Below the pieces are notes generated by a model. The model was not told the DNA's origin. It made no database searches and saw nothing but the letters and a program-made list of their open reading frames with translations. From an uncultured Verrucomicrobiae bacterium (GTDB lineage Bacteria; Verrucomicrobiota; Verrucomicrobiia; Palsa-1439), in contig CAVQMY010000045.1 of assembly GCA_963713705.1 (NCBI GenBank), positions 585-64,584 of the forward strand: 64,000 nucleotides of DNA. The letters are read 5' to 3'. The translations under genes and the position numbers were made by a program. Shown piece by piece: positions 9,826 to 59,058 of the stretch; positions within the stretch are counted from its first letter, which is position 1; every line of letters begins with the position of its first letter.

Positions 9826-10024
9826 AGGCCAGGCGATCAAGTCCGAGATGGTTGTGCTGATCCTGGAGAAGTGGGGGCTTCATCCCGCCCTGGAAGAGAA
9901 AGCCGCCACGCCGAACCTCGACGACCTCGCCCGCGACACCCGCGTCGTCATCCCCGAAGGCGAATACGAGCAGGCCAAGGAAATCCTCTTCGGGGAAAGT
10001 GAAATTGAACGCGCCGGGTTTTGA
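9803..10024 (+). CDS. Small DUF2007-like protein
   Basis: 73 aa (MSLKTIFEGQAIKSEMVVLILEKWGLHP…VVIPEGEYEQAKEILFG). Its size and pattern resemble DUF2007 'putative signal-transducing' domains. Confidence 0.4.
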   Translation: MSLKTIFEGQAIKSEMVVLILEKWGLHPALEEKAATPNLDDLARDTRVVIPEGEYEQAKEILFGESEIERAGF

Positions 10025-10079
10025 ACGCGAACTGATTCTACCGAGGGATCCTGGTTCCTAGAGCAAGTGACAGCTTCTG

Positions 10080-21982: not shown

Positions 21983-23251
21983 CAGGGCGATTGCATTTAG
22001 AAGTTGAGCAGGGAGGCGAGGTACTGGTGGTCCCAGCCGGCGGCCTTTTGTTTGGCGCGGATGCCCAGTTTGACTCGCTGGTCGCGGCGCAGTTGGTTCA
22101 GGCATAAGGCCCGCAGCGTGGCCAGGTTCTGCGCCGCGTTCTGCTGGCGCACGGCGCAGCGGTCTTCGCCCATCTGCACGTCCAGCACCCAGTGCAGGCA
22201 ATTCTCGATCTCCCAGTGGCCGCGCACCGCCGCCGCAAACCGCTCGACCTGCGCCGGCAGGCTGCCGAGATAGTAGCGCCGCTGCGTCGTCGATTTCCCC
22301 TGCACCTCCCGCACTGCTTCGACCATCCCGACGCTGCGTAAGGCTTCCCACTGGGGCCTGTCGGCCAGCCAAGCGATCGCTTCGGTAATCCAATAGCGAC
22401 GGGTCTCGATGCGCCCGTGATCCTTCTCCAGGGTCTGGGTGAATTGATGGGCGAGGCCAGCAAAACCGCGCGCGTGGGCGTCGTCCAGAAACGCTTGGAC
22501 TTCGGCGTGCAGCGTGCCCTGATTGCCTTTCAGTGCCAGCACGTAGTCGGCATCGGCCTCGTGAATCTCTTTGGCCACGGTCTTTTGGCAGCCCATCGCG
22601 TCCACCGTCACCACACAGCCGGCCAATTCCAGCGCCCGGAGCAGCGGGGGCAGTGCGGTGATCTCGTTGCTGTGGTCGTCCACCTTCAGTTGCCCCAGCA
22701 CCAAGCGATTCCGGGCCGCCCAGACGTTGACCAGGTGGATCGGCCCGTGCCCGCGCGCCCGACTGTGCCGCAGCGTCTTGCCATCCAACGCCACCAATTC
22801 GCCGACGACGACCTGGCGCAGGCTTTGCGTCCACGCCAGGAAACAGTCCCGAAACTTCGCCGGATCAATGAGCCCGAACACACGGTTGAAGGTGTCGTGC
22901 GAGGGAATGCCGTGCGGCAACGCCAGCCAGCTTTTGAACCACTCGGCCTTGCACCGACCGCACTGGGCGATTTCGGTGAAGCCCTCCGCACCGCAGAGCA
23001 TGGCGCAGACGGCGATCATCAGGATATCCAGCAACTCGTGGCGCTTGGCCGGGCCGACGCGCGGGTCGGGTCGTGGAGCGAAGTGGTCTTTCAAATTGCG
23101 GAACGAGGATCGTTGGTTTTGCATCCCCATCTTCCACCACAAATCCCCGGAAACCGGAAGCAAAAACTTGTCGTCGCAAACCGGCTCCACCGGCCCACTT
23201 ACAAAGAATTCCTTTCGCACCCCCCTGAAGAATCAAAATGCAATCGCCCTG
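21983..23251 (-). mobile_element. ISAs1-family insertion sequence, copy 1 (1269 bp)
   Basis: Terminal inverted repeats CAGGGCGATTGCATTT. A 10-bp direct repeat GGCCATTTAC flanks it at 21973-21982 and 23252-23261. Near-identical to copy 2. Confidence 0.85.
21997..23220 (-). CDS. ISAs1-family (H-repeat-associated) DDE transposase
   Basis: 407 aa: DDE_Tnp_1_assoc N-terminus (…DPRVGPAKRHELLDILMIAVCAMLCGAEGFTEI…) plus DDE core (…VTVDAMGCQ…YYLGSLPAQ…HWEIENCLHWVLDV…). Confidence 0.85.
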   Translation of the reverse strand: MRKEFFVSGPVEPVCDDKFLLPVSGDLWWKMGMQNQRSSFRNLKDHFAPRPDPRVGPAKRHELLDILMIAVCAMLCGAEGFTEIAQCGRCKAEWFKSWLALPHGIPSHDTFNRVFGLIDPAKFRDCFLAWTQSLRQVVVGELVALDGKTLRHSRARGHGPIHLVNVWAARNRLVLGQLKVDDHSNEITALPPLLRALELAGCVVTVDAMGCQKTVAKEIHEADADYVLALKGNQGTLHAEVQAFLDDAHARGFAGLAHQFTQTLEKDHGRIETRRYWITEAIAWLADRPQWEALRSVGMVEAVREVQGKSTTQRRYYLGSLPAQVERFAAAVRGHWEIENCLHWVLDVQMGEDRCAVRQQNAAQNLATLRALCLNQLRRDQRVKLGIRAKQKAAGWDHQYLASLLNF

Positions 23252-30702: not shown

Positions 30703-31206
30703 GTGGGAAACAAGAGATTGGGAGGATTCGCAGATGCCACTGACAGCCGAAAACATCGGGCAAACGGACGCGGTCAAGACGGCTGGCCAAGATGCCGTTC
30801 CGGCCCGCCGAGTTCCGTCATCCGCGTGCTGGCCATTGACGACAACGAGGAGTTCCGCAATCTCATCACCGAATTGCTGCGGCCCCTCGGATTCGACGTT
30901 GAGGCCGTCGCCAGTCCCGTAAAGGCCCTGGAAAAGTTCACCCAGCAGAAGGACAGGTTTCAGCTCGTGTTGCTCGACTACTACATGCCCCAGCTTGACG
31001 GCGCCAAGACGTTCGAGTGGTTAAAGAAGCTCAATCCGTCCGTGAAAGTCATCATTGTGTCCGGCGCGGAAGAACTGCGGCTCCGCCAGATCCTCGCTCA
31101 ACACCCGATCGATGGCTATATCCGCAAGCCGTTCCGCGTCCAGGAAGCCCTTCACATTATCCACCATGTGATGGCCAAATCCAGCGGCCGATCTACCGCT
31201 CCCTAG
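30703..31206 (+). CDS. Single-domain response regulator (CheY-like receiver); N-terminus uncertain
   Basis: …IRVLAIDDNEEFRNLITELLRPLGFDVEA…LVLLDYYMPQLDG…VIIVSGAEE…IRKPF…, a receiver domain with no output domain. An alternative ATG in another frame at 30734 suggests a possible frame error at the 5' end. Confidence 0.6.
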   Translation: MGNKRLGGFADATDSRKHRANGRGQDGWPRCRSGPPSSVIRVLAIDDNEEFRNLITELLRPLGFDVEAVASPVKALEKFTQQKDRFQLVLLDYYMPQLDGAKTFEWLKKLNPSVKVIIVSGAEELRLRQILAQHPIDGYIRKPFRVQEALHIIHHVMAKSSGRSTAP

Positions 31207-31293
31207 TGTGCTGTCCCTAACGCTTCGTTACAATGAATCGCTTCATTTTGACCAGATGGACATTGGAAAGGCATTTCAGTGACACCACACTAG
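31203..31293. repeat. 91-bp element, left copy of a perfect inverted-repeat pair
   Basis: CTAGTGTGCTGTCCCTAACGCTTCGTTACAATGAATCGCTTCATTTTGACCAGATGGACATTGGAAAGGCATTTCAGTGACACCACACTAG. The unit has its own terminal inverted repeats CTAGTGTGnTGTC/GACAnCACACTAG. It overlaps the response-regulator stop codon (TAG at 31204-31206). Confidence 0.8.
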
Positions 31294-31353
31294 CGCGATT
31301 GACCGTCTCATTTCGCCGGGGCAGGCCACCGCGTCACCCCTCTTTGCCTCGCA

Positions 31354-31992
31354 TCACAAACTGCGCCGACGCCTGAGGAACGCGACAAGCGATACGCCGC
31401 CGAGCGCGGCCAGCAGAAACGTCGATGGCTCGGGAATGAACTCGAATGTGAAATTGTCCGTGACAAAGTCCTCCCCTCCACCAGAAAACCCTGCGCTTTG
31501 TCCGCCAAAAGAGTTGAAGTAAAGCCGGTCGACATCCAGATAATTAAAAGTGAACAAAGTTGGATTCGTCGCACTGGCAACGACGGTCTGATCGTAGAGC
31601 AGGTTTGTTCCGTCAAACCCTTGAACTTCGACATTCAAGTTGCTGTTCCAAGCGCCAGTCAGGTAAACGCTCAGGAAGTTGAAATTCGTCGACGAATCAA
31701 TCTCGGCGGGTGTGCCACCGGCATTAACGGCCACGTTGGAAGGTGACACCATGCCATAATAAATGCCGCTCAACCCCCCTCCGAGTACCGGGGGAAGGTT
31801 AGTCTCAAGAATCGCGTTCACAACTCCAAAATTACTCCAAACCAGTCCTTGATAGCCGTTTGGAATGTATTCTCCACTACCCGTTACATGGAGATCGTCG
31901 AAAGTGATGACGCTCTGCCCCTTGGTCGAAGCTGTTGAGAGGGCGAGCAATGTGAAACATATGAGAGACTGGAGGAACAACCTCGACTTCAT
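31354..31992 (-). CDS. PEP-CTERM-anchored secreted protein
   Basis: Signal peptide MKSRLFLQSLICFTLLALSTA… and the C-terminus FIPEPSTFLLAALGGVSLVAFLRRRRSL. The longer ORF reaching 32208 is probably read-through. Confidence 0.7.
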   Translation of the reverse strand: MKSRLFLQSLICFTLLALSTASTKGQSVITFDDLHVTGSGEYIPNGYQGLVWSNFGVVNAILETNLPPVLGGGLSGIYYGMVSPSNVAVNAGGTPAEIDSSTNFNFLSVYLTGAWNSNLNVEVQGFDGTNLLYDQTVVASATNPTLFTFNYLDVDRLYFNSFGGQSAGFSGGGEDFVTDNFTFEFIPEPSTFLLAALGGVSLVAFLRRRRSL

Positions 31993-32117
31993 AACAAGCG
32001 TCCTTATCTTTTCTCCACCGGAATCATAGCAGTAAACGGCGGTGGAATCCAGAGAATTCGGGGCAACCGTAGCTGGTGAAGCGCCTGCCCTAAAGCGGAG
32101 TGGGTATGTGTTCGTTG

Positions 32118-33929
32118 TCATTGGATTTTGCCGACGAGTGAAAAACACTGGGCGGTGGGACAGGGAGCATTCATGATGTTTATGACACTGATCTCGGAGC
32201 AGTCCCACGCCATTCCAGTGTTGGTGGCGTTCCCGTTCGGATCAGTGGCGGTATCAGGATCGGCGAATTTGATAAGGCACGCTCCACTGGCGCTGTAGCT
32301 GTACACACCGCCATTGGTGACCGGGCCAACGGCGATGCCCGCGTAGTTGGTGGCCAACACAGTCACATTCGAACTGTTGAATGTCGCATTGTACGACCCT
32401 CCCGCAGCGTTAAAGTTATCCGTATTGAAGTACAGATACAGGGTGCCGTTGCATTGGGCCGTAACAACGCTGCTTCCCCCGCCGGTTCCCAACTGGACGG
32501 TGCGCTGGCAACGGGTGCAGAACTGCAGCGGGCCTGCGGGGGTGTACTGGCTGATTTGGTTCGTCGCTCCCCCGTTGGTCACGTTGCCGATGGAGCCGTA
32601 GGAATTGTCGCCCCAGCCCCAATACTGGTTCGTGCCTTGATTGACCGTCATCGCCATGGCGTGCACGCCTCCAAAATAGGCATTCGTAGTGAAGACATTG
32701 CCTAAACCATCATCGGATCGGGGGGCGCTGACCCAGACGACGTTGGTGATGCCGGCCACCAACATCGGGTGGTTGGCGGAAGCGACCGCGCTGGTGTTGG
32801 TGCCCAGTTCCCCAAATGTGTTGTCCCCCCATGCGTAGACCTGGCCGTTGCTGGTCACGGCCAGCGTGAACCCGACGCCACCAGCGATCGCCACGACGTT
32901 GGACAGATTGGCCACCACTGTCGGCGCCGGGTCGTAGCCGCCAGTGGTACCATTCCCGAGTTCTCCAAGCCCGTTATCGCCCCAGGTCCACACCCGCTTG
33001 TCCGCGGTCAGGGCGATGGAGTGACCACCCCCGCCTACGCCCGCGTAGTTGTCGCCAGCCGCAATCGCAATCACGCTGGAGATGCCGGCGACCAGCGTAG
33101 GAAGATTCGTGGATGCATCTCGACCCGGCGTTGGAGTTGCACCGATCTCACCAACCTCGTTTCCGCCCCAGCCCCAGACGAAACCATTTGTATCCACAGC
33201 CAGGCTAAAACCGTTCCCAGCCGCTATGGCGACGATGAAAGTGCCTGTCGGAATCCGTGACTGAACCGGAGAATTGGTCGAAAGCGCGCCACCAAGATAC
33301 CCGGCCCCCAATTGCCCATTTCCAGTGCCGTCGGTGCCGTTCTGGTTGCTGCCCCAAGCCCAGACCGACCCGTTAGCGCACAACGCCAGCGTGTGCTGGT
33401 ACCCGGCGGCGACACTGACCACGTTAGTAAAGCCAAGGGGACCGCTGACCGGGAAAGGCACAGGGTACATTGAGCCAGAATAGGCCTGTTCGGACTCATT
33501 TCCGAGTTGTCCTTGGTCGTTTTCGCCGAATGTCCACACCGTCCCCGTGGCATCAACCACCACCGTATAGTCGTCCCCACCAGCGGCGACCACTGCCGCG
33601 TTGGTGATGGTTTGAACTCCACATGACGTGGCGTTCGCCACGTCGCTCGGGTACGGTAGATACGGCTCCACGTAGCTACCGTCTGCCCGCTGCATGTTAC
33701 TGTCCAAACCGTCACCCAAATCTCCGTCACTGTCGCCCCAAGCCCAAAGAGTACCATCCTGTCTCAATGCCACGCTGCTTTCTCCTCCTGCGGCAATCGG
33801 GCTGCCGAGCAGGCGCTGGACGCGATAAAATCGTTGTGTGACGGTGCTCCCATCGTTGTTGGTGGTGGCGGTGTCCGTCCACGAGGTTACACTGGCATTG
33901 GTAGCGCCCCAAACGTAGGCTTTGGGCAT
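32118..33929 (-). CDS. RCC1-repeat (seven-bladed beta-propeller) protein
   Basis: 603 aa. More than six repeats of the …G.V.AWG.N..GQLG… type (WGWGGNEVGEIG, WTWGDNGLGELGNG, YAWGDNTFGELGTN). No signal peptide in frame. Confidence 0.75.
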   Translation of the reverse strand: MPKAYVWGATNASVTSWTDTATTNNDGSTVTQRFYRVQRLLGSPIAAGGESSVALRQDGTLWAWGDSDGDLGDGLDSNMQRADGSYVEPYLPYPSDVANATSCGVQTITNAAVVAAGGDDYTVVVDATGTVWTFGENDQGQLGNESEQAYSGSMYPVPFPVSGPLGFTNVVSVAAGYQHTLALCANGSVWAWGSNQNGTDGTGNGQLGAGYLGGALSTNSPVQSRIPTGTFIVAIAAGNGFSLAVDTNGFVWGWGGNEVGEIGATPTPGRDASTNLPTLVAGISSVIAIAAGDNYAGVGGGGHSIALTADKRVWTWGDNGLGELGNGTTGGYDPAPTVVANLSNVVAIAGGVGFTLAVTSNGQVYAWGDNTFGELGTNTSAVASANHPMLVAGITNVVWVSAPRSDDGLGNVFTTNAYFGGVHAMAMTVNQGTNQYWGWGDNSYGSIGNVTNGGATNQISQYTPAGPLQFCTRCQRTVQLGTGGGSSVVTAQCNGTLYLYFNTDNFNAAGGSYNATFNSSNVTVLATNYAGIAVGPVTNGGVYSYSASGACLIKFADPDTATDPNGNATNTGMAWDCSEISVINIMNAPCPTAQCFSLVGKIQ

Positions 33930-34032
33930 CCACTGGGTGTTGGTGCTGAGCGAGTTGGCGGAGAAGACCAGATAGCGGAAGAACGGTGATTATATACTTG
34001 CTTTAAGTTGTTACCCATGGTAGGTTCCTTGC

Positions 34033-34419
34033 ATGAAAACACCCGTTGAGTTCCCTGAGACTTTGAAGGATGCGATTGGCTATTTCTCTGACGCTGATCG
34101 CTGCGTTGAATTTATGAAGGCCGTGCAATGGCCTGACGGCAAGGTGATATGCCCTCACTGCAAGGCGGAGAGCGTGTCCTACATGCCCAAGGTGCGGCGA
34201 TGGTACTGCCGTGGGTGTGACGGTCAATTCTCGGTCAAGGCTGGCACGATATTCGAGGAGTCGCCCCTTGGGTTTGACAAGTGGTTGCCTGCCGTGTGGA
34301 TGATACTCAACGCCAAGAATGGGATTAGCTCGTGTGAGTTGTCCCGCGCTCTTGGTGTCACGCAAAAGACCGCGTGGTTCATGCTGCACCGGATACGTGA
34401 AGCTGATCGGGCAGGGTGA
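34033..34419 (+). pseudogene. IS1595-family (ISXO2-like) transposase, N-terminal fragment only
   Basis: 128 aa: zinc-ribbon plus …KWLPAVWMILNAKNGISSCELSRALGVTQKTAWFMLHRIREA…, the ISXO2-like N-terminal domain. The catalytic DDE part is absent. Confidence 0.65.
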
Positions 34420-34639
34420 CACGAGGCCAGAGCTTCCGACGCCAAGGCCGTGGGAAACGCAAGAAACGAAAAAGCGAGCAATGAGGCGGAAGCCGTTCGG
34501 TGGGTTGGGTTGGAATCCATTACCGGCATGAGGCACTATGGCCTTCATAGAAAAAGCCAAAGAAGTTCTGACAGAAAAAGCGTTGTCACTATGGACAGGA
34601 GTAGTAGCAGCACTGCTGCTATTCGTAGGAAAAGTGATT

Positions 34640-34730
34640 CTAGTGTGGTGTCACTGAAATGCCTTTCCAATGTCCATCTGGTCAAAATGAAGCGATTCAT
34701 TGTAACGAAGCGTTAGGGACAGCACACTAG
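34640..34730. repeat. 91-bp element, right copy (exact reverse complement of 31203-31293)
   Basis: 100% identical inverted copy. It supplies the last 5 codons (LVCCP) and the stop of the 34713..35246 gene. Confidence 0.8.
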
Positions 34731-35246
34731 ACGCAGCGCTTCCCACGCTCTCTTCCCCAACGTTCCAGAAATTATTGCTCCCCCTATTAGGAATATCCAT
34801 TCTAGCCAATGTGGGACTGATCGCATCTGTTTGGCTTTTGAGCCGTCGCCCGAAATTGTTTCCCCGTTTTGGTATCCTGTGGGACTCAAAACATCAAGCC
34901 CACTGTCCGGGATGCGATAGGCCGTTATCAAATTATTCACAGCGGTCGTATGGCGGTACATGGGGCTGGTGGTGCCATCACTGTAAACAGGAAGCGTTTC
35001 TTCGAGATGATAAAGGAAATCGCCTAACTCTTGATGAAGCTCGAAAGCAACTGTAGGCAGTGCTGATAGCCCCACTGCGAGAACCAAAACGAAGCCGATA
35101 TTGACAAAACCTTTCGCCTTTCGTTCTCTCGCCCGCTTGCGGGCCTCCTTGTCCTCACGTTCGCGGCGCAATACCTCGGTTTTCGGAACCGAAACTATCT
35201 TCCGTATCCCGGCCAAGAATTTCTCTCTCTCCGAATGTTCGTTCAT
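34713..35246 (-). CDS. Small membrane protein (two predicted TM helices), downstream partner of the HEPN-motif gene
   Basis: 177 aa. Charged N-terminus (REREDKEARKRARERKAK), then TM1 (GFVNIGFVLVLAVGLSALPTV), a soluble middle and TM2 (WIFLIGGAIISGTL). Its start overlaps the stop of the upstream gene (ATGA), which suggests translational coupling. Confidence 0.5.
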   Translation of the reverse strand: MNEHSEREKFLAGIRKIVSVPKTEVLRREREDKEARKRARERKAKGFVNIGFVLVLAVGLSALPTVAFELHQELGDFLYHLEETLPVYSDGTTSPMYRHTTAVNNLITAYRIPDSGLDVLSPTGYQNGETISGDGSKAKQMRSVPHWLEWIFLIGGAIISGTLGKRAWEALRLVCCP

Positions 35247-36205
35247 TTCTTAGGCTCCATTACACGATTGGACAGCGACACCATGAATTTCTTAACCGAA
35301 TTGAAAACCACATCGGCCTCATCCGCACCATAACTTCGCCGAGAATGCATGATCTCGTTTCGGTCTACGTTTTTGAACTTCTGCAAGTCGTCTAGGAGAC
35401 CATGATAAAATCGAAAGTTCTCTGTTCGGCAAGGTCCCTTCTTCGCATTTTCCAAGGAGACGATTTTCTTTTTCAATTCCTTCAGCACTTCGTCCCACAT
35501 CGCATATTCAACCGGAGTTGTAACAGGTTTTCCCGCGTCGCTGATCACACGCTTGCAATGCGGGCATTTCTGCTCTCTTTTCTGCTTTGTGATTTTCACT
35601 TTGAGATGCTTCGCCAAGGCCCGCATTCCAAATTCGGCAACACGCATCAAATGAAAGACCGCAGCGGTGGGAAGATCGGCGGCAAGGCAGTTCCCCGCAT
35701 TCTCGATGTCGTCTCGGGCGGATTTGAAGTTCTCGTAAACCGATTCTCCGAAAAGCCTGTTGTTCTCGAAATACGCATGTTGTGATTCGGGGATGTAAAC
35801 AAATTTGCGGGCTTCCATTTCGTTGTAAATAGCAATTCGCGCGCGCTCCAGAAACGACTTGATGGTTTCGTTGCTCTTTGGCTTGTATCCGGTTGCGGGG
35901 TCTTTCAGGGGCCAGCTTAGATCAATTACCAGCCTTTCTAGCTGGTCTCTTCCATCCGTGTTGCCCATGAACGCCAAGGCGTTATTCAGGGCACGAAGGG
36001 AAATCTCGATCTCCGAGGCATCTTCCTTGCAAATCTCTTCTGAGCCGGGCTTTTGATTTAGAATGCGAATCCAACGGGATAGATCGTCCATGCCCTGCAC
36101 AACATGATGTGCCCAAAATCGAATCATGGACAATAAGCTTAACAATCGGCCCGGACACAGTACAGGCTCTTGGATGGTGGCTTCAGTTTGATCAGTGACG
36201 CGCAT
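35243..36205 (-). CDS. HEPN-motif (Rx4HxR) protein, putative RNase of an Abi/toxin-like module
   Basis: 320 aa. The C-terminal region …FKNVDRNEIMHSRRSYG… matches the HEPN Rx4-6H consensus with a trailing R. There is a mid-protein CPHCKR Zn-knuckle-like motif. The ISAs1 copy sits 68 bp upstream. Confidence 0.45.
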   Translation of the reverse strand: MRVTDQTEATIQEPVLCPGRLLSLLSMIRFWAHHVVQGMDDLSRWIRILNQKPGSEEICKEDASEIEISLRALNNALAFMGNTDGRDQLERLVIDLSWPLKDPATGYKPKSNETIKSFLERARIAIYNEMEARKFVYIPESQHAYFENNRLFGESVYENFKSARDDIENAGNCLAADLPTAAVFHLMRVAEFGMRALAKHLKVKITKQKREQKCPHCKRVISDAGKPVTTPVEYAMWDEVLKELKKKIVSLENAKKGPCRTENFRFYHGLLDDLQKFKNVDRNEIMHSRRSYGADEADVVFNSVKKFMVSLSNRVMEPKK

Positions 36206-36272
36206 TCATCGCATGCACACCAAAAGCAAGATGTTCCTCGCGTCATTTGCTTCATTGCAGGACTCTAATCCG

Positions 36273-37541
36273 CAGGGCGATTGCATTTTGATTCTTAAGG
36301 GGGGTGCGAAAGGAATTCTTTGTAAGTGGGCCGGTGGAGCCGGTTTGCGACGACAAGTTTTTGCTTCCGGTTTCCGGGGATTTGTGGTGGAAGATGGGGA
36401 TGCAAAACCAACGATCCTCGTTCCGCAATTTGAAAGACCACTTCGCTCCACTACCCGACCCGCGCGTCGGCCCGGCCAAGCGCCACGAGTTGCTGGATAT
36501 CCTGATGATCGCCGTCTGCGCCATGCTCTGCGGTGCGGAGGGCTTCACCGAAATCGCCCAGTGCGGTCGGTGCAAGGCCGAGTGGTTCAAAAGCTGGCTG
36601 GCGTTGCCGCACGGCATTCCCTCGCACGACACCTTCAACCGCGTGTTCGGGCTCATTGATCCGGCGAAGTTTCGGGACTGTTTCCTGGCGTGGACGCAAA
36701 GCCTGCGCCAGGTCGTCGTCGGCGAATTGGTGGCGTTGGATGGCAAGACGCTGCGGCACAGTCGGGCGCGCGGGCACGGGCCGATCCACCTGGTCAACGT
36801 CTGGGCGGCCCGGAATCGCTTGGTGCTGGGGCAACTGAAGGTAGACGACCACAGCAACGAGATCACCGCACTGCCCCCGCTGCTCCGGGCGCTGGAATTG
36901 GCCGGCTGTGTGGTGACGGTGGACGCGATGGGCTGCCAAAAGACCGTGGCCAAAGAGATTCACGAGGCCGATGCCGACTACGTGCTGGCACTGAAAGGCA
37001 ATCAGGGCACGCTGCACGCCGAAGTCCAAGCGTTTCTGGACGACGCCCACGCGCGCGGTTTTGCTGGCCTCGCCCATCAATTCACCCAGACCCTGGAGAA
37101 GGATCACGGGCGCATCGAGACCCGTCGCTATTGGATTACCGAAGCGATCGCTTGGCTGGCCGACAGGCCCCAGTGGGAAGCCTTACGCAGCGTCGGGATG
37201 GTCGAAGCAGTGCGGGAGGTGCAGGGGAAATCGACGACGCAGCGGCGCTACTATCTCAGCAGCCTGCCGGCGCAGGTCGAGCGGTTTGCGGCGGCGGTGC
37301 GCGGCCACTGGGAGATCGAGAATTGCCTGCACTGGGTGCTGGACGTGCAGATGGGCGAAGACCGCTGCGCCGTGCGCCAGCAGAACGCGGCGCAGAACCT
37401 GGCCACGCTGCGGGCCTTATGCCTGAACCAACTGCGCCGCGACCAGCGAGTCAAACTCGGCATCCGCGCCAAACAAAAGGCCGCCGGCTGGGACCACCAG
37501 TACCTCGCCTCCCTGCTCAACTTCTAAATGCAATCGCCCTG
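36273..37541 (+). mobile_element. ISAs1-family insertion sequence, copy 2 (1269 bp)
   Basis: Same inverted repeats CAGGGCGATTGCATTT. A 10-bp direct repeat CTCTAATCCG flanks it at 36263-36272 and 37542-37551. It differs from copy 1 at only a few positions. Confidence 0.85.
36304..37527 (+). CDS. ISAs1-family DDE transposase (copy 2)
   Basis: 407 aa, ~99% identical to 21997..23220 (differences include P->L and G->S). Confidence 0.85.
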   Translation: MRKEFFVSGPVEPVCDDKFLLPVSGDLWWKMGMQNQRSSFRNLKDHFAPLPDPRVGPAKRHELLDILMIAVCAMLCGAEGFTEIAQCGRCKAEWFKSWLALPHGIPSHDTFNRVFGLIDPAKFRDCFLAWTQSLRQVVVGELVALDGKTLRHSRARGHGPIHLVNVWAARNRLVLGQLKVDDHSNEITALPPLLRALELAGCVVTVDAMGCQKTVAKEIHEADADYVLALKGNQGTLHAEVQAFLDDAHARGFAGLAHQFTQTLEKDHGRIETRRYWITEAIAWLADRPQWEALRSVGMVEAVREVQGKSTTQRRYYLSSLPAQVERFAAAVRGHWEIENCLHWVLDVQMGEDRCAVRQQNAAQNLATLRALCLNQLRRDQRVKLGIRAKQKAAGWDHQYLASLLNF

Positions 37542-38394
37542 CTCTAATCCGGCTCGCAACTTTACGCAAGTATATAATCCCCGGAAGAACTGGCAGGACT
37601 GCCAGGTGATCGTGGTAGACCCGCTCGCGTTCCGTACGAACGTTTGTCACGTAGAACGCCTGAAGCAGGTTTGTCAGGGTACAGGGATCGCTTCCACCGC
37701 CACCGTCATCATCCATAGCCATAAACCCGCGACTCATGCTGGCGGCGCTGGCGGTTGCCGCTTCTGCCGCCGCACATTGGGCCTCAAGATTATTCCAGTA
37801 GGTATCCCGAGAGCCAACGTCCATCAGCCACGCATGCGTGATCACCTGCGGCACGGAGAATTGCGTATAGCCTTCCTCCACCAGCGTCTCCCAATTCGTA
37901 TAGTTGATTCCGAAGAGAACGCACGAAGGATACAGGTTGGCTTCGTAGACCTGCCACGAGGGAAACCAGTCTGGCACGGTGAATTCGGTCAGGGTTTCAT
38001 CCGACCACGGCTGCAACACCGTCACGGTATTCGACTGCGGCCAGAGCGTGACCCAAAGGGGCCAAGCGTTCACGCTCTCCAGGGAGGTCGGAGCGGAATT
38101 CGTGATCCCGGCCAGTCCCGTTGGCAGATTGGCTGTATTCGCCCACACGATGGTCATCGGCTGGAACTGCACCGGGAAGAACGTCCCGGGCGCCCAGACC
38201 CACGAGCCAATCGGGTAGTTGTAGCCCTCCAGATACAGACCGACAAGGTCGGTGGTATTGGTCAACAGCAATTCCGACTCAGGTTGAGCCGAGGGATTCT
38301 CTTCCAATTGCGGAATGTCCGCCCGCACAGCAGTTAACGGGCACAGCAAGGCGGTAAGTGCTAGGCAAACGACCGGCGATGTCCGCTTCTCCAT
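37417..38394 (-). CDS. Secreted hypothetical protein whose 3' end was altered by the ISAs1 insertion
   Basis: Signal peptide MEKRTSPVVCLALTALLCPLTAVRA. The frame runs into the IS at 37541. With the IS and one direct-repeat copy removed, the protein would end …ASRIRVLQ* three codons later. Confidence 0.55.
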   Translation of the reverse strand: MEKRTSPVVCLALTALLCPLTAVRADIPQLEENPSAQPESELLLTNTTDLVGLYLEGYNYPIGSWVWAPGTFFPVQFQPMTIVWANTANLPTGLAGITNSAPTSLESVNAWPLWVTLWPQSNTVTVLQPWSDETLTEFTVPDWFPSWQVYEANLYPSCVLFGINYTNWETLVEEGYTQFSVPQVITHAWLMDVGSRDTYWNNLEAQCAAAEAATASAASMSRGFMAMDDDGGGGSDPCTLTNLLQAFYVTNVRTERERVYHDHLAVLPVLPGIIYLRKVASRIRAGRLHLEVEQGGEVLVVPAGGLLFGADAEFDSLVAAQLVQA

Positions 38395-38531
38395 ACCCTC
38401 TCCACAGCCCTTCCACAGCGACCATCGCCAGCGTACGGTGGCAGATTGTGCGGTGAACGCGAAATGAAGTCAAGCGCAAACACGAGTGAAATACAAGGAT
38501 TACCCTTGTGGAATGACCCGGCGTTTCTTGG

Positions 38532-38768
38532 TTGTGTATCAGTCGCGTGCGGTCAATTCCAAAACAATACAAGGTCATCGGCGAAACCATCCGCAAGCGT
38601 CGGAGGAAGGCCCGTCTCACCCAGGAAAAACTCGCCGAACTCGCCGATCTGCACCCGAATTATCTCGGCGAGATCGAACGCGCGGAGACAATGATCTCCC
38701 TTTGGGCGTTGATACGCATTGCCGCAGCGCTGAAAATTCGTGTCCGCGATCTCGTGGCGGACATTTAG
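38532..38768 (+). CDS. XRE-family (Cro/C1-type HTH) transcriptional regulator
   Basis: …IGETIRKRRRKARLTQEKLAELADLHPNYLGEIERAETMISLWALIRIAAALKIRVRDL…, an HTH_3 pattern. The exact start is uncertain. Confidence 0.65.
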   Translation: MCISRVRSIPKQYKVIGETIRKRRRKARLTQEKLAELADLHPNYLGEIERAETMISLWALIRIAAALKIRVRDLVADI

Positions 38769-39323
38769 CCCCCCGATTGCTGCGTCTGCTGTTCCGGTCT
38801 TCCCAACCGTGAAACCACTTCCACACTGGCCTGACTCTGCGTGGTTGTCCCTGACAACTGTGCCCAAGAGATCTCGTATTCTTGTTCGCGCGGCGGGATC
38901 TGAGATTGAATATCAACGATCTTCGCGTCCGGCAAAGTCAGTGCCTCCCTGCTCCTGGGTAACTCGTTGCTGGTACGAATCGACCCCGGCTTGAAGCTGC
39001 GACCGCGCGGGTTGCCTGATTGCGCGCCGTCGGGCGGTTGGACCAAAACCGAGAGCGGTTCTTTGGTGACCGCGGATCGGAATTTTGTCCCCAAGAATGG
39101 GCAGCGGCAACACGGTCTTGACCACGCCCATGGTGAGTTATAGCAGCCAATAGGGGATACTGGCGCTACGGGCTTGTGTCAGTTTTCCGCGCTGCCGCTG
39201 CAAATATCATCGGCCAACTGGAAATGGCTTCCGGGACCAGCGTACGGTAGTTCGGAAATCAGTTAAGAACCCATCCCAAAACCCCTCTGGCAATGATATA
39301 ATGGGGATGCCAAGGAGGCATCT

Positions 39324-39785
39324 ATGGGGAAAAGCAGATCGCACGAGCGTTGGCTCGTGTCTGACCAATTGTGGAGTAAGGTCGAGCCACTCCTGCCCAA
39401 GCCGCGGCGACACGCGCGGGGGCGTGGCGGGCGACCGCGGGTCGCCGACCGCCACGCGATGAACGGAATTCTGTTCGTGTTGCGCACTGGTTGCCAGTGG
39501 AACGCGCTTAACGCGACGGGCATCTGCAGCAGTTCCACCGCCCATCGGCGTTTTCAACAATGGGTGCGCGCCGGGGTGTTTGCGAAACTTTGGGAACAGG
39601 GGTTGACGGAATACGACGAACTCAAAGGCATTGACTGGCGCTGGCAGGCGATGGATGGAGCGATGAGCAAAGCTCCGTTGGGCGGGGAAAAAAATCGGCC
39701 CCAACCCCACGGATCGAGCCAAGGACGGGGTGAAGCGCAGCTTGTTGACGGAGGGTCAAGGCGTGCCGATCGGACTGGCCATTGA
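39324..39785 (+). CDS. IS5-family transposase OrfA (DUF4096-type N-terminal part)
   Basis: 153 aa (…LFVLRTGCQWNALNATGICSSSTAHRRFQQWVRAGVF…). It ends just after the A7 slippery run at ~39697. Confidence 0.75.
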   Translation: MGKSRSHERWLVSDQLWSKVEPLLPKPRRHARGRGGRPRVADRHAMNGILFVLRTGCQWNALNATGICSSSTAHRRFQQWVRAGVFAKLWEQGLTEYDELKGIDWRWQAMDGAMSKAPLGGEKNRPQPHGSSQGRGEAQLVDGGSRRADRTGH

Positions 39786-40158
39786 CGGGGCCAACCGCAA
39801 CGACTTCAAGCTGGTGAGAGAAACGCTGGAAAGCATTCCGGTGGAGCGACCAGGCGTTGGGAGCGGCCAGTCGCAAGGATTGTGTCTGGACAAAGGATAC
39901 GATTACGACGAAGTACGGGAACTGGCGCAGGAGTTTGGCTACACGGTTCACATCCGCAGTCGCGGTGAGGAAGCCCAGGCGCTCAAACGCAACGCTCGAT
40001 TCAAAGCGCGCCGTTGGGTGGTCGAGCGGACCCACAGTTGGCTGAATCGGTTTCGCCGCATTCTGATTCGGTGGGAGAAGAAAGCGGACAATTACTTGGG
40101 GCTACTTCACTTTGCTTGCGCGATCATCACCTATCGCCGCGCCGAGGTTCTGGGATAG
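39730..40158 (+). CDS. IS5-family transposase OrfB (DDE C-terminal part)
   Basis: …LLTEGQGVPIGLAIDGANRNDFKLV…DKGYDYDEVRELAQEFGYTVHI…WVVERTHSWLNRFRRL…. The +1 frame is continuous with OrfA across GGGGAAAAAAATCGG. Confidence 0.75.
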   Translation: MKRSLLTEGQGVPIGLAIDGANRNDFKLVRETLESIPVERPGVGSGQSQGLCLDKGYDYDEVRELAQEFGYTVHIRSRGEEAQALKRNARFKARRWVVERTHSWLNRFRRILIRWEKKADNYLGLLHFACAIITYRRAEVLG

Positions 40159-40191
40159 GCACTAAGTAAGGAGTGTGTAAAATTTTGCGCG

Positions 40192-42676: not shown

Positions 42677-43217
42677 ATGATGAAAAAGACGATTCGCAAC
42701 GCGATTTTGGAAATCGCGCAGGGTGACATCACCGCGTTGGCGGTGGATGCGATCGTCAACGCCGCGAATGAATACCTTAAACACGGTGGTGGCGTGGCCG
42801 CGGCCATTTCACGCAAGGGCGGGCCGACGATCCAGCGGGAATCCGATGTACTAATTTCGATGCGCGGGCCACTCAAGACAGGTGAGGCGGTCATCACAGG
42901 TGGCGGCATGGCGGAAGTTTGTGATTCACACCGTCGGCCCAGTCTGGAGCCGGCATGATCCGACGGAAGCGGACCGGCTGTTGTGCCAAGCGGTGAGGAG
43001 CAGCCTGACACTGGCTGAGGCGAAGGGACTGAAATCCATCGCGTTTCCGGCCATCAGCACGGGCATCTACGGGTTCCCCATCGAGCGCGCCGCGCCGTTG
43101 ATGCTCAAGGAAGCGAAACGCCACCTCGAAGGCGAAACTGGCATGGCGCGCGTGTTGCTTTGTCTGTACGACGACGCGAGCTATCAGGTTTTCGAATCAG
43201 CCTTTGCCAGTCTCTGA
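42677..43217 (+). CDS. Macro-domain (ADP-ribose-binding / O-acetyl-ADP-ribose deacetylase-like) protein, frameshifted near 42900
   Basis: Frame 1: [44 protein letters not shown]…AVITGGG. Frame 2: …[11 protein letters not shown]…[17 protein letters not shown]…. Together these make a canonical macro domain. Confidence 0.7.
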
Positions 43218-43297
43218 GCTGATTGTCGCACCGCGAAGTCGAGCAGACCCGGAGGCAGGCGGCCCAGCCAGATGCCGAGTCGGGCGGAATCGGTCAG
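43078..43297. repeat. ~220-bp segment (macro-gene 3' end plus SDR-like 3' remnant), direct repeat of 46259-46479
   Basis: Roughly 80% nucleotide identity. On the minus strand it encodes [37 protein letters not shown], a paralogous remnant of the C-terminus of the SDR gene at 46363..47178. Confidence 0.65.
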
Positions 43298-46062: not shown

Positions 46063-46258
46063 ATTCTTCCTTCCTCTGATTTTTAGTTTTTCCTGTTTCG
46101 TTGCTGGTCGCCAGCCCTGTAGCTGGTTCCCAGCAAACGTGCCCACTCTAGAGTTTTGAGGTCGGACCCAATAGACCCCAATGGCCTGATTTGGATAGGT
46201 CGAAAGTCACGGCCAAAACTGTTGCGCGGCCGCAGGCATTCGATCAAAGAAACCAATC

Positions 46259-46479
46259 CACATCGAGCGCGCCGCGCCGTTGATGCTCAAGGAAGAGAAA
46301 CGCCACCTCGAACGGGAAGCGGGACTGGAGCGCGTGCTGTTTTGTCTCTACGACGACGCGAGCTATCGGGTTTTTGAATCGGCCTTCGCCAGTCTCTGAG
46401 CTGATTGTCGGACGGCGAAATCGAGCAGCGGGGGGCAAAGGCGGCGGAGCCAGATGGCGAGGCGCGCGGAGCTGGTCAG
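46259..46479. repeat. Direct repeat of 43078-43297 (degenerate macro-gene 3' end plus SDR 3' end)
   Basis: The + strand retains a decayed macro C-terminus (…[45 protein letters not shown]). The minus strand is the intact SDR C-terminus. Confidence 0.65.
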
Positions 46480-52243: not shown

Positions 52244-53146
52244 CGAAGGCTAAGTGCCTATCCCAGAACCTCGGCGCGGCGATAGGTGATGATCGCGCAA
52301 GCAAAGTGAAGTAGCCCCAAGTAATTGTCCGCTTTCTTCTCCCACCGAATCAGAATGCGGCGAAACCGATTCAGCCAACTGTGGGTCCGCTCGACCACCC
52401 AACGGCGCGCTTTGAATCGAGCGTTGCGTTTGAGCGCCTGGGCTTCCTCACCGCGACTGCGGATGTGAACCGTGTAGCCAAACTCCTGCGCCAGTTCCCG
52501 TACTTCGTCGTAATCGTATCCTTTGTCCAGACACAATCCTTGCGACTGGCCGCTCCCAACGCCTGGTCGCTCCACCGGAATGCTTTCCAGCGTTTCTCTC
52601 ACCAGCTTGAAGTCGTTGCGGTTGGCCCCGTCAATGGCCAGTCCGATCGGCACGCCTTGACCCTCCGTCAACAAGCTGCGCTTCACCCCGTCCTTGGCTC
52701 GATCCGTGGGGTTGGGGCCGATTTTTTTCCCCGCCCAACGGAGCTTTGCTCATCGCTCCATCCATCGCCTGCCAGCGCCAGTCAATGCCTTTGAGTTCGT
52801 CGTATTCCGTCAACCCCTGTTCCCAAAGTTTCGCAAACACCCCGGCGCGCACCCATTGTTGAAAACGCCGATGGGCGGTGGAACTGCTGCAGATGCCCGT
52901 CGCGTTAAGCGCGTTCCACTGGCAACCAGTGCGCAACACGAACAGAATTCCGTTCATCGCGTGGCGGTCGGCGACCCGCGGTCGCCCGCCACGCCCCCGC
53001 GCGTGTCGCCGCGGCTTGGGCAGGAGTGGCTCGACCTTACTCCACAATTGGTCAGACACGAGCCAACGCTCGTGCGATCTGCTTTTCCCCATAGATGCCT
53101 CCTTGGCATCCCCATTATATCATTGCCAGAGGGGTTTTGGGATGGG
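52244..53146 (-). mobile_element. IS5-family (IS1031/IS427-group) insertion sequence, copy B
   Basis: Inverted copy of 39264-40166 with flanking TAA duplication. orfB is 52258..52686 and orfA is 52631..53092. Confidence 0.75.
52258..53092 (-). CDS. IS5-family transposase OrfA/OrfB (copy B; two overlapping frames joined at an A7 run)
   Basis: Protein sequences identical to 39324..39785 and 39730..40158. Confidence 0.75.
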
Positions 53147-54144
53147 TTCTAAACTGTTCACTGGCGGATTCCTATCCCCATCGTGTCCCGCGCCAAGTCG
53201 CGCAGCGGCGGGCAAGCATGGGTTGACAGTATTCACTCCCGTTCATACTGGTTGCGGCGCCCGCACGCACTCGGCGCGCGTTTGCGCCAGCACCAAGTCC
53301 GTGGAGCGTCTCATCGGCCAGTGCCGCTTTCGGCTCCGGCTGACTCGGCTTCTGACGCTACACGGGCGGGTTAGCGGCGGTGTGGACGGCGGCGCAAGCT
53401 GAAGCCGTGCGGCTACAAGGCGGCGGGTGCGGTGGGTGGATGGGGGAAAAGCGAAAAGGGATGAGGGATACCTGGACCCTTCGACTTCGCTCCCTTCGAC
53501 AGGCTCAGGGCAGGCAGGGCAGGCTCTCGGCATCCCGCCCCGCCTGAGGCGGGCGGGCTTCGTCGGTTTCATCGTATTGCGATTGACTTTGTATCTCATT
53601 GGGATATACTGTGGGGCTGACGTTGGAACGTTCTTTGACAATGAGGGGGGGGGCACCACAACCGGTGGGGGTGGTCGAGAGGCTGTCGAAAAAGTAAAAA
53701 ATACAAACGAACCCAAGTTTGACCAAGCCGGCGTGGAAATTTCCAAAAACAAAGCCAAAAACGAACCCAAGTTGAGGCCACAAGCGGAGGGAAGACGGCC
53801 AGTAGCCAGGTAACGGGGTAGCCGAGTAGCCAATAGCCAAGTGGCCGAGCCACAGACGCACACAGATGGGCCGCGTGACGCTCGTGCGAGCGAACGCGGG
53901 CTTCGCCGCGAGGGACCGCGCGTGGGGTGCGTGGTGCGATGGGTGTTGGGACGGGGGTGTACAGGGGGGTGGGTCTCGATTGCACTCGTTCGCTCCCGCT
54001 CAGCTAGGCGGCTCGGTTGACTCCGCTCACGCCCGTTCGCGTCGCCCTTCGGGTGCCGAAAAGGCACGGCCTGTTTGCGACCGGGGATACGACGTGGTCG
54101 CGTCTCACCTTCGGTTCGGCTCCGCGGCTACCCTCGCCGCTCGG

Positions 54145-58050: not shown

Positions 58051-59058
58051 TCAGCGGCCCCCGAATTCGGCGGCTTGCGCAAAGTCCTTCTCCGCTCCCG
58101 CCCGATCACCCAGGGCCTTCTTGACACCGCCACGGCCAATGTAGGCCATCGCGTCATGCGGATTGAGTTCAATGGCCTTCGTGAAATCGGCCATGGCACC
58201 CTCCAGATTACCCTTCATCCTCTCGACATTGGCACGGCTCACATACGCGGCCGGGTATTCCGGGTTGAGCTCAATCGCTTTCGACAAATCCGCGCCCGCG
58301 CCATCCAAATCCCCCTTGACCTTCCTGGCATTGCCACGGTCCATGTACGCCTCGCCCAGTGTCGGGTTCAATTGAATGGCTTTCGTGTCGTCAGCGATCA
58401 CTCCATCCCAATCCCGCTTGGCTATCTCGCCTTTGCCCCGCCCGGCGTACGCCATCGCATCCTTGGGATCGAGTTCAATCGCCTTTGAGAAATCGAACAT
58501 GGCGCTATCCCAATCGTACTTGTCTGCGTCAACAGTCCCCCGGTCAACGTACGCGTGGGCCAGTTTCGGGTCGATCTCAATGGCTTTCGTGAAATCCGCC
58601 ATCGCCCCATCCAGATCGCCCTTGGCTTTCCTGGCATTGCCACGATTGTCGTAGGCGACCGCGAGCTTCGGCTCGAGTTCAATCGCTTTCGTGAAGTCCG
58701 CAATCGCGCCGTCCCACTTGCCCCCGTCCATCCTCGCGCCGCCACGGTTGTTGTAGGCACCGGCCGCCCTGGGATCGAACTCAATGGCTTTCGTAAAATC
58801 GGCCATCGCGCCCTTCAGATCGCCTTTCATCCACTTCACACTGCCCCGGCCATCGTAGGCGGCCGCGTCTCGTGGATTGACTTGGATGGCTTTCGTGAAA
58901 TCCGCCATCGCCCCGTCCCAATTGTCCTTGGCGATCTCCCTCTTGCCGCGGTCGACTAAATCCGTGGCGGACTGGTGGCCGACTGTCGAACACGACTGGC
59001 TCAACGCACACAGCAGAGCGCACAACATCAGTTGGATTGGACGGGACTTGGCTGACAT
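58051..59058 (-). CDS. TPR-repeat lipoprotein (PrsT-like, PEP-CTERM system associated?)
   Basis: Lipoprotein signal (…LMLCALLCALSQSC). About eight tandem 34-aa repeats, each with A(M/I)ADFTKAIE(L/I)…P…A…Y..RG. It lies adjacent to the exosortase. Confidence 0.65.
   Translation of the reverse strand: MSAKSRPIQLMLCALLCALSQSCSTVGHQSATDLVDRGKREIAKDNWDGAMADFTKAIQVNPRDAAAYDGRGSVKWMKGDLKGAMADFTKAIEFDPRAAGAYNNRGGARMDGGKWDGAIADFTKAIELEPKLAVAYDNRGNARKAKGDLDGAMADFTKAIEIDPKLAHAYVDRGTVDADKYDWDSAMFDFSKAIELDPKDAMAYAGRGKGEIAKRDWDGVIADDTKAIQLNPTLGEAYMDRGNARKVKGDLDGAGADLSKAIELNPEYPAAYVSRANVERMKGNLEGAMADFTKAIELNPHDAMAYIGRGGVKKALGDRAGAEKDFAQAAEFGGR

Follow-up and report, generated by a model that had tools for sequence, protein, structure and literature searches.

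Two inverted 91-nt repeats in a Verrucomicrobiota genome probably arose by separate insertions of a recently active MITE of the IS630 type

Two 91-nt units lie in inverted orientation, 3346 nt apart, in the 64-kb window (the whole stretch of DNA that was analysed). They and the genes and transposons around them are arranged as follows:

21983-23251: ISAs1-type IS, copy 1, with the duplication ggccatttac
30703-31206, forward strand: CheY-type response regulator (PF00072)
31203-31293, forward strand: MITE copy 1, an 83-nt core with CTAG at each side
31354-31992, reverse strand: PEP-CTERM protein gene, 212 aa (PF07589, 24.1 bits)
32118-33984, reverse strand: 3' portion of an RCC1-repeat gene (PF25390/PF00415)
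33985-37582, no strand assigned: decayed IS1595-family transposon with passenger genes (terminal inverted repeats, 8-bp duplication)
34545-35246, reverse strand: gene for a membrane protein of ancestrally ~204 aa, interrupted by MITE copy 2 (from homologues and an empty site)
34640-34730, reverse strand: MITE copy 2, identical to copy 1 and inverted
36273-37541, forward strand: ISAs1-type IS, copy 2, 1269 nt (DDE_Tnp_1_assoc and DDE_Tnp_1), with the 10-bp duplication ctctaatccg

The IS1595-type transposon is bounded in the window by terminal inverted repeats at 33985-34008 and 37559-37582, which are 27 nt long in the relatives L019 and L021, and is flanked by an 8-bp duplication, GGAAGAAC, at 33977-33984 and 37583-37590. 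Transposase type, terminal repeats and duplication length all place it in the IS1595 family. Its transposase (34033-34528) is internally deleted, with aa 1-128 and 309-352 alone remaining; the zinc-ribbon fragment matches PF12760, and the intact relatives of the enzyme match NF033547 (on the L019 transposase) and PF12762. The transposon also holds the membrane-protein gene, a 320-aa gene (35243-36205), the second 91-nt unit and, nested within it, the second ISAs1-type IS. The window is generally IS-rich, and its other ISs keep intact target duplications. The 5' portion of the RCC1 gene, which carries the signal peptide, is found at 37591-38394, past the transposon and out of frame by one base, and a domain like that of protein P0005 aligns over the transposon-excision junction of this gene (tblastn E 4e-7). 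The PEP-CTERM, RCC1-repeat and IS1595 identities assigned to the enclosed reading frames in the original prediction thus hold by the domain matches given above, whereas the supposedly intact RCC1 protein is the 3' part of a transposon-split gene, and the "IS1595 remnant", correct as to family, is the deleted transposase of a 3.6-kb nested transposon that runs to 37582, beyond the right repeat. The PEP-CTERM gene is missing from syntenic relatives and is lineage-specific cargo of a variable stretch, outside any mobile unit.

The two 91-nt units are 100% complementary over their entire length, in agreement with the original prediction, and a search for the unit at up to 3 mismatches yields these 2 matches only in the 64-kb window, where shuffled sequences lead one to expect 0. 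The unit starts with CTAGTGTGCTGTC and ends with GACACCACACTAG; the 13-bp terminal inverted repeats reported earlier are present, although they match at 12 of 13 positions and are not perfect, and they extend imperfectly to 34 nt (71% match). The longest open frame in the unit is of at most 28 codons, leaving no coding capacity for a transposase, and the 83-nt core with its two CTAGs can equally be read as an 85-nt element with a duplicated TA. The predicted fold is a long hairpin (-23.5 and -28.6 kcal/mol, z = -1.9 and -3.2). An Rfam search of the unit gave no match, and no promoter or terminator consensus and no terminator-like T-run were found in either window copy. In Logan contig L018, which is the sole further assembly of this locus, the sequence breaks off 27 nt inside the unit.

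Comparison with relatives reveals how each copy sits in its surroundings. The response-regulator ORF (30703-31206) has its TAG stop in the left copy, as had been proposed, namely in the first CTAG, and since this stop lies in the target CTAG the protein is unaltered by the insertion. Orthologues of the response regulator are 85-95% alike and end in ...SAAP or ...STAP; relative to them the N-terminal leader of the window protein is frameshifted near 30790-30800. In the MITE-free relatives L027-L031 the left site is empty, with one CTAG followed by cgc..ctcatttcgc.gggc, and this is the sequence found after copy 1 in the window. Copy 2 occupies a CTAG (cgt CTA Gaa) within the membrane-protein gene. 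What remains upstream of it, 34713-35246 on the reverse strand, encodes a shortened 177-aa membrane protein whose tail, L-V-C-C-P-stop, is supplied by the unit, while 34545-34639 is the orphaned 3' end of the gene and codes for the last hydrophobic helix. Excision of copy 2 in silico restores the tail RLESL...LSELLWLFL-stop that is conserved in the homologues P0002 and P0003, and the right site is empty at the exact position in L019 (GCGATGCGT CTAG AATCAC). The contribution of LVCCP and a stop by the right copy was therefore correctly seen at the outset, but the 177-aa membrane protein is really a truncated protein of ~204 aa.

At both sites the target is duplicated, CTAG-83 nt-CTAG in the window as against a single CTAG in the relatives. 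A third copy, identical at 91 of 91 positions, lies between unrelated flanks on another contig (L026, 9971-10061), where it interrupts an ORF that encodes 252 aa ending in LVCCP-stop in its presence and 309 aa after its excision. A fourth is deduced from protein P0005, encoded on a different, 92-kb contig, which has a 25-aa C-terminal tail encoded by the unit. The copy count refers to these four documented sites, not to a whole-genome total; metagenome scans for the core of the unit and for one of its ends returned no match. CTAG is scarce (26 sites in the 64-kb window), and because it is both rare and carries TAG on both strands, the copies come to lie at or near gene ends. The unit is thus short and non-coding, has terminal inverted repeats, is seen as filled versus empty site, and occurs at multiple unrelated loci, all as in a bacterial MITE; the empty sites, the extra copies and the matching IS630 ends described below bear out the earlier description of the repeats as MITE-like.

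The affiliation of the unit is indicated by its ends. Its terminus, CTAG·TGTGCTGTCCC…, matches both ends of IS630-family ISs of ~1.16 kb that are likewise flanked by CTAG and bear CTAGTGTGCTGTCCC..AAATAAC at both ends; the first 13-15 nt of the unit are identical to the ends of four such elements, with up to 21 of 26 positions matching. These full-length ISs come from plasmids of Pseudomonadota, not from Verrucomicrobiota. The transposases of these ISs, with DDE_3 and HTH domains, are recognised by NF033545 transpos_IS630 at 275 bits (cut-off 100). In all four places inspected, a 30-nt consensus end matches plasmid records a little upstream of an IS630-family transposase gene. The same ends are shared by 17 MITE-like elements of 76-106 nt with unrelated interiors, distributed across phyla. 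The TA within 5'-CTAG-3' is the insertion target of IS630 (Tenzen & Ohtsubo 1990, 1991, as cited in PMC2170065), and every insertion site seen here is a CTAG, which fits IS630. No IS630-type transposase turned up by tblastn in the 64-kb window, and none in 20 kb of L026 or in the loci covered from the same organism. The 91-nt unit is therefore best read as a non-coding MITE of ~85 nt, consisting of little beyond two ~34-nt ends of an IS630-family IS.

Derivation from another family, for example from an IS5-type element with a 4-bp CTAG duplication, is improbable. Such an origin would accord with MITEPsy1, which is thought to be IS5-derived and duplicates CTAG or YTAA (PMC3189936), with the ends of the IS5-family IS in the window (39260-40166 and 52250-53156; …GTGCCTATCCCAGAAC), which loosely resemble those of the unit, and with the fact that TA and CTAG duplications are indistinguishable where every site is CTAG. 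However, the first 13-15 nt of the unit are those of elements whose transposases are IS630 by both NCBIfam and Pfam, a search with the 13-nt end at up to 1-2 mismatches found no site at the ends of the IS5-type element, and the ends of MITEPsy1 (GGAAGGTCTGAAAAAGCC) are unrelated to those of the unit.

It thus appears very probable that a recently active MITE of the IS630 type inserted twice, independently, to give the two window copies, and that the 3.35 kb between them have no functional identity of their own. A DDE transposase of the IS630/Tc1-mariner type, encoded elsewhere in the genome, would act in trans, binding the terminal repeats and excising the element, which would then be pasted into the TA of a CTAG with duplication of that TA. 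The perfect identity of the copies would reflect a recent burst of transposition rather than selection for recombination. Copy 1 would have struck the CTAG containing the response-regulator stop, with a neutral outcome for that protein; copy 2 would have struck the membrane-protein gene in an already decaying IS1595-type transposon, at the cost of the last transmembrane helix. With two independent insertions, the intervening 3.35 kb are an accidental slice, not a designed invertible or mobile cassette.

The original prediction had proposed a potential phase-variable cassette for two surface or secreted proteins. On this reading the 91-bp inverted copies would recombine, flip the 3.35-kb segment and switch PEP-CTERM and RCC1 expression. 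Perfect inverted homology of 91 bp, with the copies 3.3 kb apart, could serve as a RecA substrate; judging from the gene map, inversion would bring the PEP-CTERM gene downstream of the response regulator and co-oriented with it. Nevertheless a switch of this kind is very unlikely. Neither an invertase nor a site-specific recombinase domain was found in the ORFs from 18 to 55 kb of the window, so that a nearby dedicated recombinase is lacking there, and no promoter-like site was found at the borders of the segment; both copies are free of promoter-like and terminator-like sites. The two border ORFs terminate inside the identical unit, and inversion would therefore leave both products as they are. 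The RCC1 ORF in the segment is a fragment that lacks its 5' part, the right border falls within a gene carried as a passenger by a dead transposon, and the repeats owe their existence to transposition, as the copies elsewhere show. On both sides the assembly shows the ancestral orientation (L019; L027-L031), and the intact target duplications of other inverted IS pairs in the window argue against frequent IS-mediated inversion. A low-frequency homologous inversion across the 91 bp is physically possible. There is a slight chance that RecA-dependent events occasionally yield a subpopulation in which the PEP-CTERM gene and the RCC1 fragment follow the response regulator and point the same way; if so, the MITE copies would by accident have made the expression of a surface protein polymorphic. 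Inversion would be expected to yield junctions of the form ...ACCGCTCC-unit-AATCACTTTTCC..., ...ACCGCTCC-[unit]-AATCACTTTTCCTACG... and ...GGGAAGCGCTGCGT-[unit]-CGCGATTGACCGTC....

Selection of the unit at gene 3' ends as a structured RNA or a regulatory repeat, for instance a REP-like terminator or stabiliser, might be suspected from the long hairpin and from the two window copies, which both lie at ORF 3' ends and face the same way with respect to the ORF. This is most unlikely: the hairpin is merely the terminal inverted repeats, the unit has no Rfam match or terminator-like T-run, and two copies truncate genes rather than follow them; any effect of this kind would follow secondarily from insertion of the MITE and would not be an alternative origin. 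Arrival of both copies and the enclosed DNA as one composite transposon, the second possibility raised in the original prediction and suggested by two identical, inverted IS630-type ends that bracket cargo and by the experimental demonstration of IS630-associated composite transposons (according to the title of Tenzen & Ohtsubo 1991, cited in PMC2170065), is scarcely credible and is refuted for the origin of the arrangement by flanks that are contiguous in MITE-free relatives: a composite insertion would leave foreign DNA at both inner flanks, whereas the right copy has parts of one gene on its two sides, with the 3' end on the inner side, and the left copy has on its inner side the conserved stretch that comes after the response-regulator stop in those relatives, so that the copies came separately and the enclosed DNA did not come with them.

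Recognition of these repeats as MITE insertions has its main value as a correction, in that a switch-like inverted repeat around "surface protein" genes is resolved by filled and empty sites into two mobile-element insertions. It also puts on record, for Verrucomicrobiota, a recently active MITE of the IS630 type, with an end type, CTAG·TGTGnTGTCyC, that is common to MITE-like elements in several phyla. An element that targets CTAG lands at stop codons and re-tails proteins, here with LVCCP-stop in two cases and with the 25-aa tail in one. Nested insertions also account for three entries that annotation should treat as truncated products: the 177-aa "membrane protein", the 603-aa "RCC1 protein" and the 128-aa "transposase".

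Among known systems, RUP, a MITE of 107 bp that occurs in Streptococcus pneumoniae in ~108 copies and is ascribed to IS630-Spn1, resembles the unit in being a multi-copy, non-coding element of ~100 bp with IS630-like terminal repeats and a TA-containing target. RUP is often inside other mobile elements and inactivates them (PMC2229807), and here copy 2 is inside the IS1595-type transposon. RUP differs in sequence and host phylum, the target of the unit is strictly CTAG, and four documented sites stand against ~108, with the autonomous partner of the unit not found in the sampled DNA. IS630 of Shigella sonnei and its ~1.16-kb relatives on plasmids of Pandoraea, Ralstonia, Pseudomonas veronii and Methylibium share the termini and CTAG flanks of the unit, but IS630-family elements are autonomous, with a DDE_3 transposase of ~360 aa, whereas the unit keeps the two ends only. 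MITEPsy1 of Pseudomonas syringae pv. phaseolicola is likewise a short (100-nt) MITE at CTAG, with transposition shown experimentally (PMC3189936), but has unrelated terminal repeats, a 4-nt duplication and a putative parent, ISPsy2, of the IS5 family. The Stowaway MITEs of plants, mobilised by Tc1/mariner elements (Feschotte et al. 2005, as cited in PMC2170065), are similarly short, have terminal inverted repeats only, target TA and are mobilised in trans by transposases of the IS630/Tc1/mariner superfamily; they differ in being eukaryotic, unrelated in sequence and far higher in copy number.

The perfect inverted repeat of the original prediction is present: the left copy of the 91-nt unit (31203-31293) and the right copy (34640-34730), flanking CTAGs included, are 100% complementary with 3346 nt between them, and the window holds no other copy at up to 3 mismatches, none being expected by chance. 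Terminal inverted repeats of 13 bp are also present but match at 12 of 13 positions; the unit starts CTAGTGTGCTGTC and ends GACACCACACTAG, its terminal repeat reaches 34 nt imperfectly, and the hairpin into which it folds is merely these repeats. Rfam gave no match in the repeat-pair region, while Pfam supports the genes named there (response regulator, PEP-CTERM protein, RCC1-repeat protein, IS1595 zinc ribbon). The pair very probably arose when a recently active MITE of IS630 type inserted twice, independently, in a variable and IS-dense part of a Verrucomicrobiota chromosome.

When 87 nt are cut in silico from the right copy, so that of the unit a single CTAG is left, the membrane-protein ORF (34713-35246, - strand, 177 aa) stays in frame and gains a hydrophobic tail, ...ALRLESLFLRIAAVLLLLLSIVTTLFLSELLWLFL*, the exact C-terminal end of P0002 (57% identity) and P0003 (47%), the only full-length homologues among 5.8 billion proteins searched. 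The corresponding DNA of a relative, L019, reads GCGATGCGT-CTAG-AATCAC, and the window ...GCGT-CTAG-[83 nt]-CTAG-AATCAC. At the left site, orthologues of the CheY-type response regulator (RR; 85-95% identity, labelled Verrucomicrobiia/-ae by their sources), in the same synteny as in the window (pfk-accC-accB-Wzy_C-holB-tmk-RR), end at a single CTAG followed by cgc..ctcatttcgc.gggc, the sequence 3' of the left copy. Compared with these relatives, both copies are simple insertions into CTAG.

This target also accounts for the position of both copies over gene ends, as had been claimed: the TAG stop of the response regulator (30703-31206, + strand) lies within the first CTAG of the left unit, and the right copy encodes the LVCCP-stop of the membrane-protein ORF. 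CTAG reads TAG on both strands, so that an element targeting it lands on amber stops or creates early ones. The tetranucleotide is strongly under-represented in the window, with 26 sites against an expected 53 (second-order) to 235 (mononucleotide); four of the 26 flank the two copies as duplicated sites, and the MITE occupies 2 of ~24 original sites.

The unit is multi-copy and mobile. Its four open frames, concatenated, were searched against the protein collection for copies outside the window. A match, P0006, pointed to ENA contig L026, where a third copy (9971-10061, 91/91 identical, CTAG-flanked) lies in an unrelated neighbourhood and breaks an ORF, which runs to 252 aa with the C-terminus ...DWRDLVCCP* as it stands and to 309 aa once the unit is excised in silico. 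A second match, P0005, is a secreted-type protein on a different 92-kb NCBI/ENA contig whose final 25 residues are the +3 frame of the unit. GC content is equal in L026 and the window, and a 334-nt IS fragment occurs in both (98.8%); L026 therefore comes from the same genome or from one very close to it. The element is documented at at least four unrelated sites and its sequence has not diverged between them, a sign of recent activity; the remark that it is like a MITE is borne out by these identical copies at unrelated CTAG sites and by its IS630-type ends.

Several other mobile features surround the pair:

33985-37582 (L019, 1208-3886; relative L021, 684-3481): IS1595-family transposon with two passenger genes, 27-nt terminal inverted repeats and an 8-bp duplication
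35243-36205, - strand: 320-aa passenger protein of a large family with a HEPN-like motif
21983-23251 and 36273-37541, inverted: ISAs1-type IS, 1269 nt, 100% identical, DDE_Tnp_1_assoc and DDE_Tnp_1
39260-40166 and 52250-53156, inverted: IS5-family IS, 907 nt, 100% identical, DUF4096 and DDE_Tnp_1_2
59854-61095: IS4-type transposase gene, 413 aa, DUF4372 and DDE_Tnp_1

RecA-dependent exchange across 91 bp is possible in principle. The proposed phase-variable cassette is not upheld: no recombinase lies in the stretch from 18 to 55 kb, neither copy contains a promoter or terminator consensus, and an inversion would not alter the border proteins, since both terminate within the identical unit. In the window's two further perfect inverted IS pairs, every copy still has its matching target duplications, and IS-mediated inversions are therefore not evident here. 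The sole alternative assembly of the locus breaks within the unit, as expected even with just two copies. Moreover, the single CTAG at both sites in relatives implies that the flanks of each copy were ancestrally contiguous; the segment is thus assembled in its original orientation, and the 3.35 kb was not brought in as a composite mobile unit. The enclosed segment begins between genes and ends midway through a dead transposon; its only intact gene is that of the PEP-CTERM protein, beside a fragment of one gene, the orphaned tail of another and the remnant of a transposase.

The right MITE copy cuts short the membrane-protein gene of the IS1595-family transposon. In relatives the transposon measures 2.7-2.8 kb, and its 27-nt terminal repeats (TTsGGGGATTATATACTTGCGTTAAGT) enclose this gene, a second one upstream and an intact, convergent gene for an IS1595-type transposase. 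The window transposon has ends at 33985-34008 and 37559-37582 and a perfect 8-bp duplication, GGAAGAAC, on both sides; its transposase gene has lost ~560 nt, leaving residues 1-128 and ~309-352 in different frames. The window, L019 and L021 all have the ~205-aa membrane protein and the transposase, but the gene in the first passenger slot changes: it encodes a ~315-aa protein in L021 and the window, and a DUF3800 protein in L019. Against L019, the window's transposase N-terminus shows 92% identity, its membrane protein only 57%. The 320-aa passenger has no Pfam, NCBIfam or PADLOC match. Its very large family numbers 5,382 representative clusters (E<=1e-3); the residues invariant across it include R282 and H287, and N283 is nearly so, a HEPN-like R-N-x-x-x-H motif. 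Pfam HEPN matches 1 of 31 members weakly, and the confident predicted model (pLDDT 89) has no significant PDB match, only weak ones to HEPN proteins such as AbiA, Csx1 and Csm6. The transposon may carry in it a HEPN-type gene, as yet uncharacterised, for a toxin or for defence.

One ISAs1-type copy (36273-37541) is nested towards the far end of the transposon; its intact 10-bp duplication is ctctaatccg, that of the other (21983-23251) ggccatttac, and the pair brackets 13 kb including both MITE copies. The IS5-family pair brackets 12 kb, with two frames as in programmed frameshifting. The fragment recurring in L026 (284-931) comes from the 59854-61095 region, and many contigs encode the exact IS4-type protein, those of JGI metagenomes 3300074272 and 3300079084 among them. 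A repeat finder also reports, at 58125-58920, a tandem array of five partial copies (60-71%) with a period of 102/204 nt and, at 43075-43297 and 46257-46479, a pair of 223-nt direct repeats (84% identity).

The IS1595-type transposon split a larger secreted RCC1-repeat gene; across the excision junction the RCC1 frame is open and a P0005-like domain aligns. The 5' part with the signal peptide (37591-38394) is one base out of frame, and the response regulator has its N-terminus (MPLTAENIGQ..., 30734-30799) and its receiver domain in different frames. These apparent single-base frameshifts in two conserved genes (~37600-37660 and ~30790-30800) are either real pseudogenisation or long-read assembly indel errors. 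The stretch 31207-40191, between the conserved response regulator and a conserved HisKA kinase/OmpR regulator pair (histidine kinase at 40.2 kb), differs completely in the syntenic relatives L027 and L029-L031; PEP-CTERM and RCC1 genes are absent there, L029 having a PMT_2 glycosyltransferase and others and L027 two unknown genes. It behaves as a variable island and recipient of most IS insertions.

A family search with the 13-nt ends only as pattern recovered 17 MITE-like elements, 76-106 nt long and spread over at least five phyla (Pseudomonadota, Verrucomicrobiae, Acidobacteriota, Gemmatimonadota, Polyangiaceae), with common ends CTAG·TGTGnTGTCyCg..AA and unrelated interiors. One beta-proteobacterial MAG holds a 93-nt element in three copies, and the start of two Pseudomonas copies (L004, L016) resembles the right end of a P. 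veronii plasmid IS630-family element (L024). The 30-nt consensus end matched plasmid records directly upstream of annotated IS630-family transposase genes at all four places inspected. These plasmid elements, ~1.16 kb long, have CTAGTGTGCTGTCCC..AAATAAC at each end and flanking CTAG; their transposases have HTH and DDE_3 domains and reach 275 bits against the NCBIfam model transpos_IS630, whose cut-off is 100. The IS630 target is given as the TA of 5'-CTAG-3' (Tenzen & Ohtsubo, as cited in PMC2170065). No IS630-type transposase is encoded within the 64-kb window, so that mobilisation would have to occur in trans, by a transposase encoded outside it.

The value of the finding is mainly for annotation and mobile-element cataloguing. 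MITEPsy1, an IS5-type MITE, can duplicate CTAG (PMC3189936), but its ends are unrelated to those of the unit, nor does the IS5-type IS of the window have such ends, and IS5-type parentage is unlikely. Among described elements, the unit's closest analogue is the S. pneumoniae repeat RUP, which has been ascribed to IS630-Spn1 (PMC2229807).
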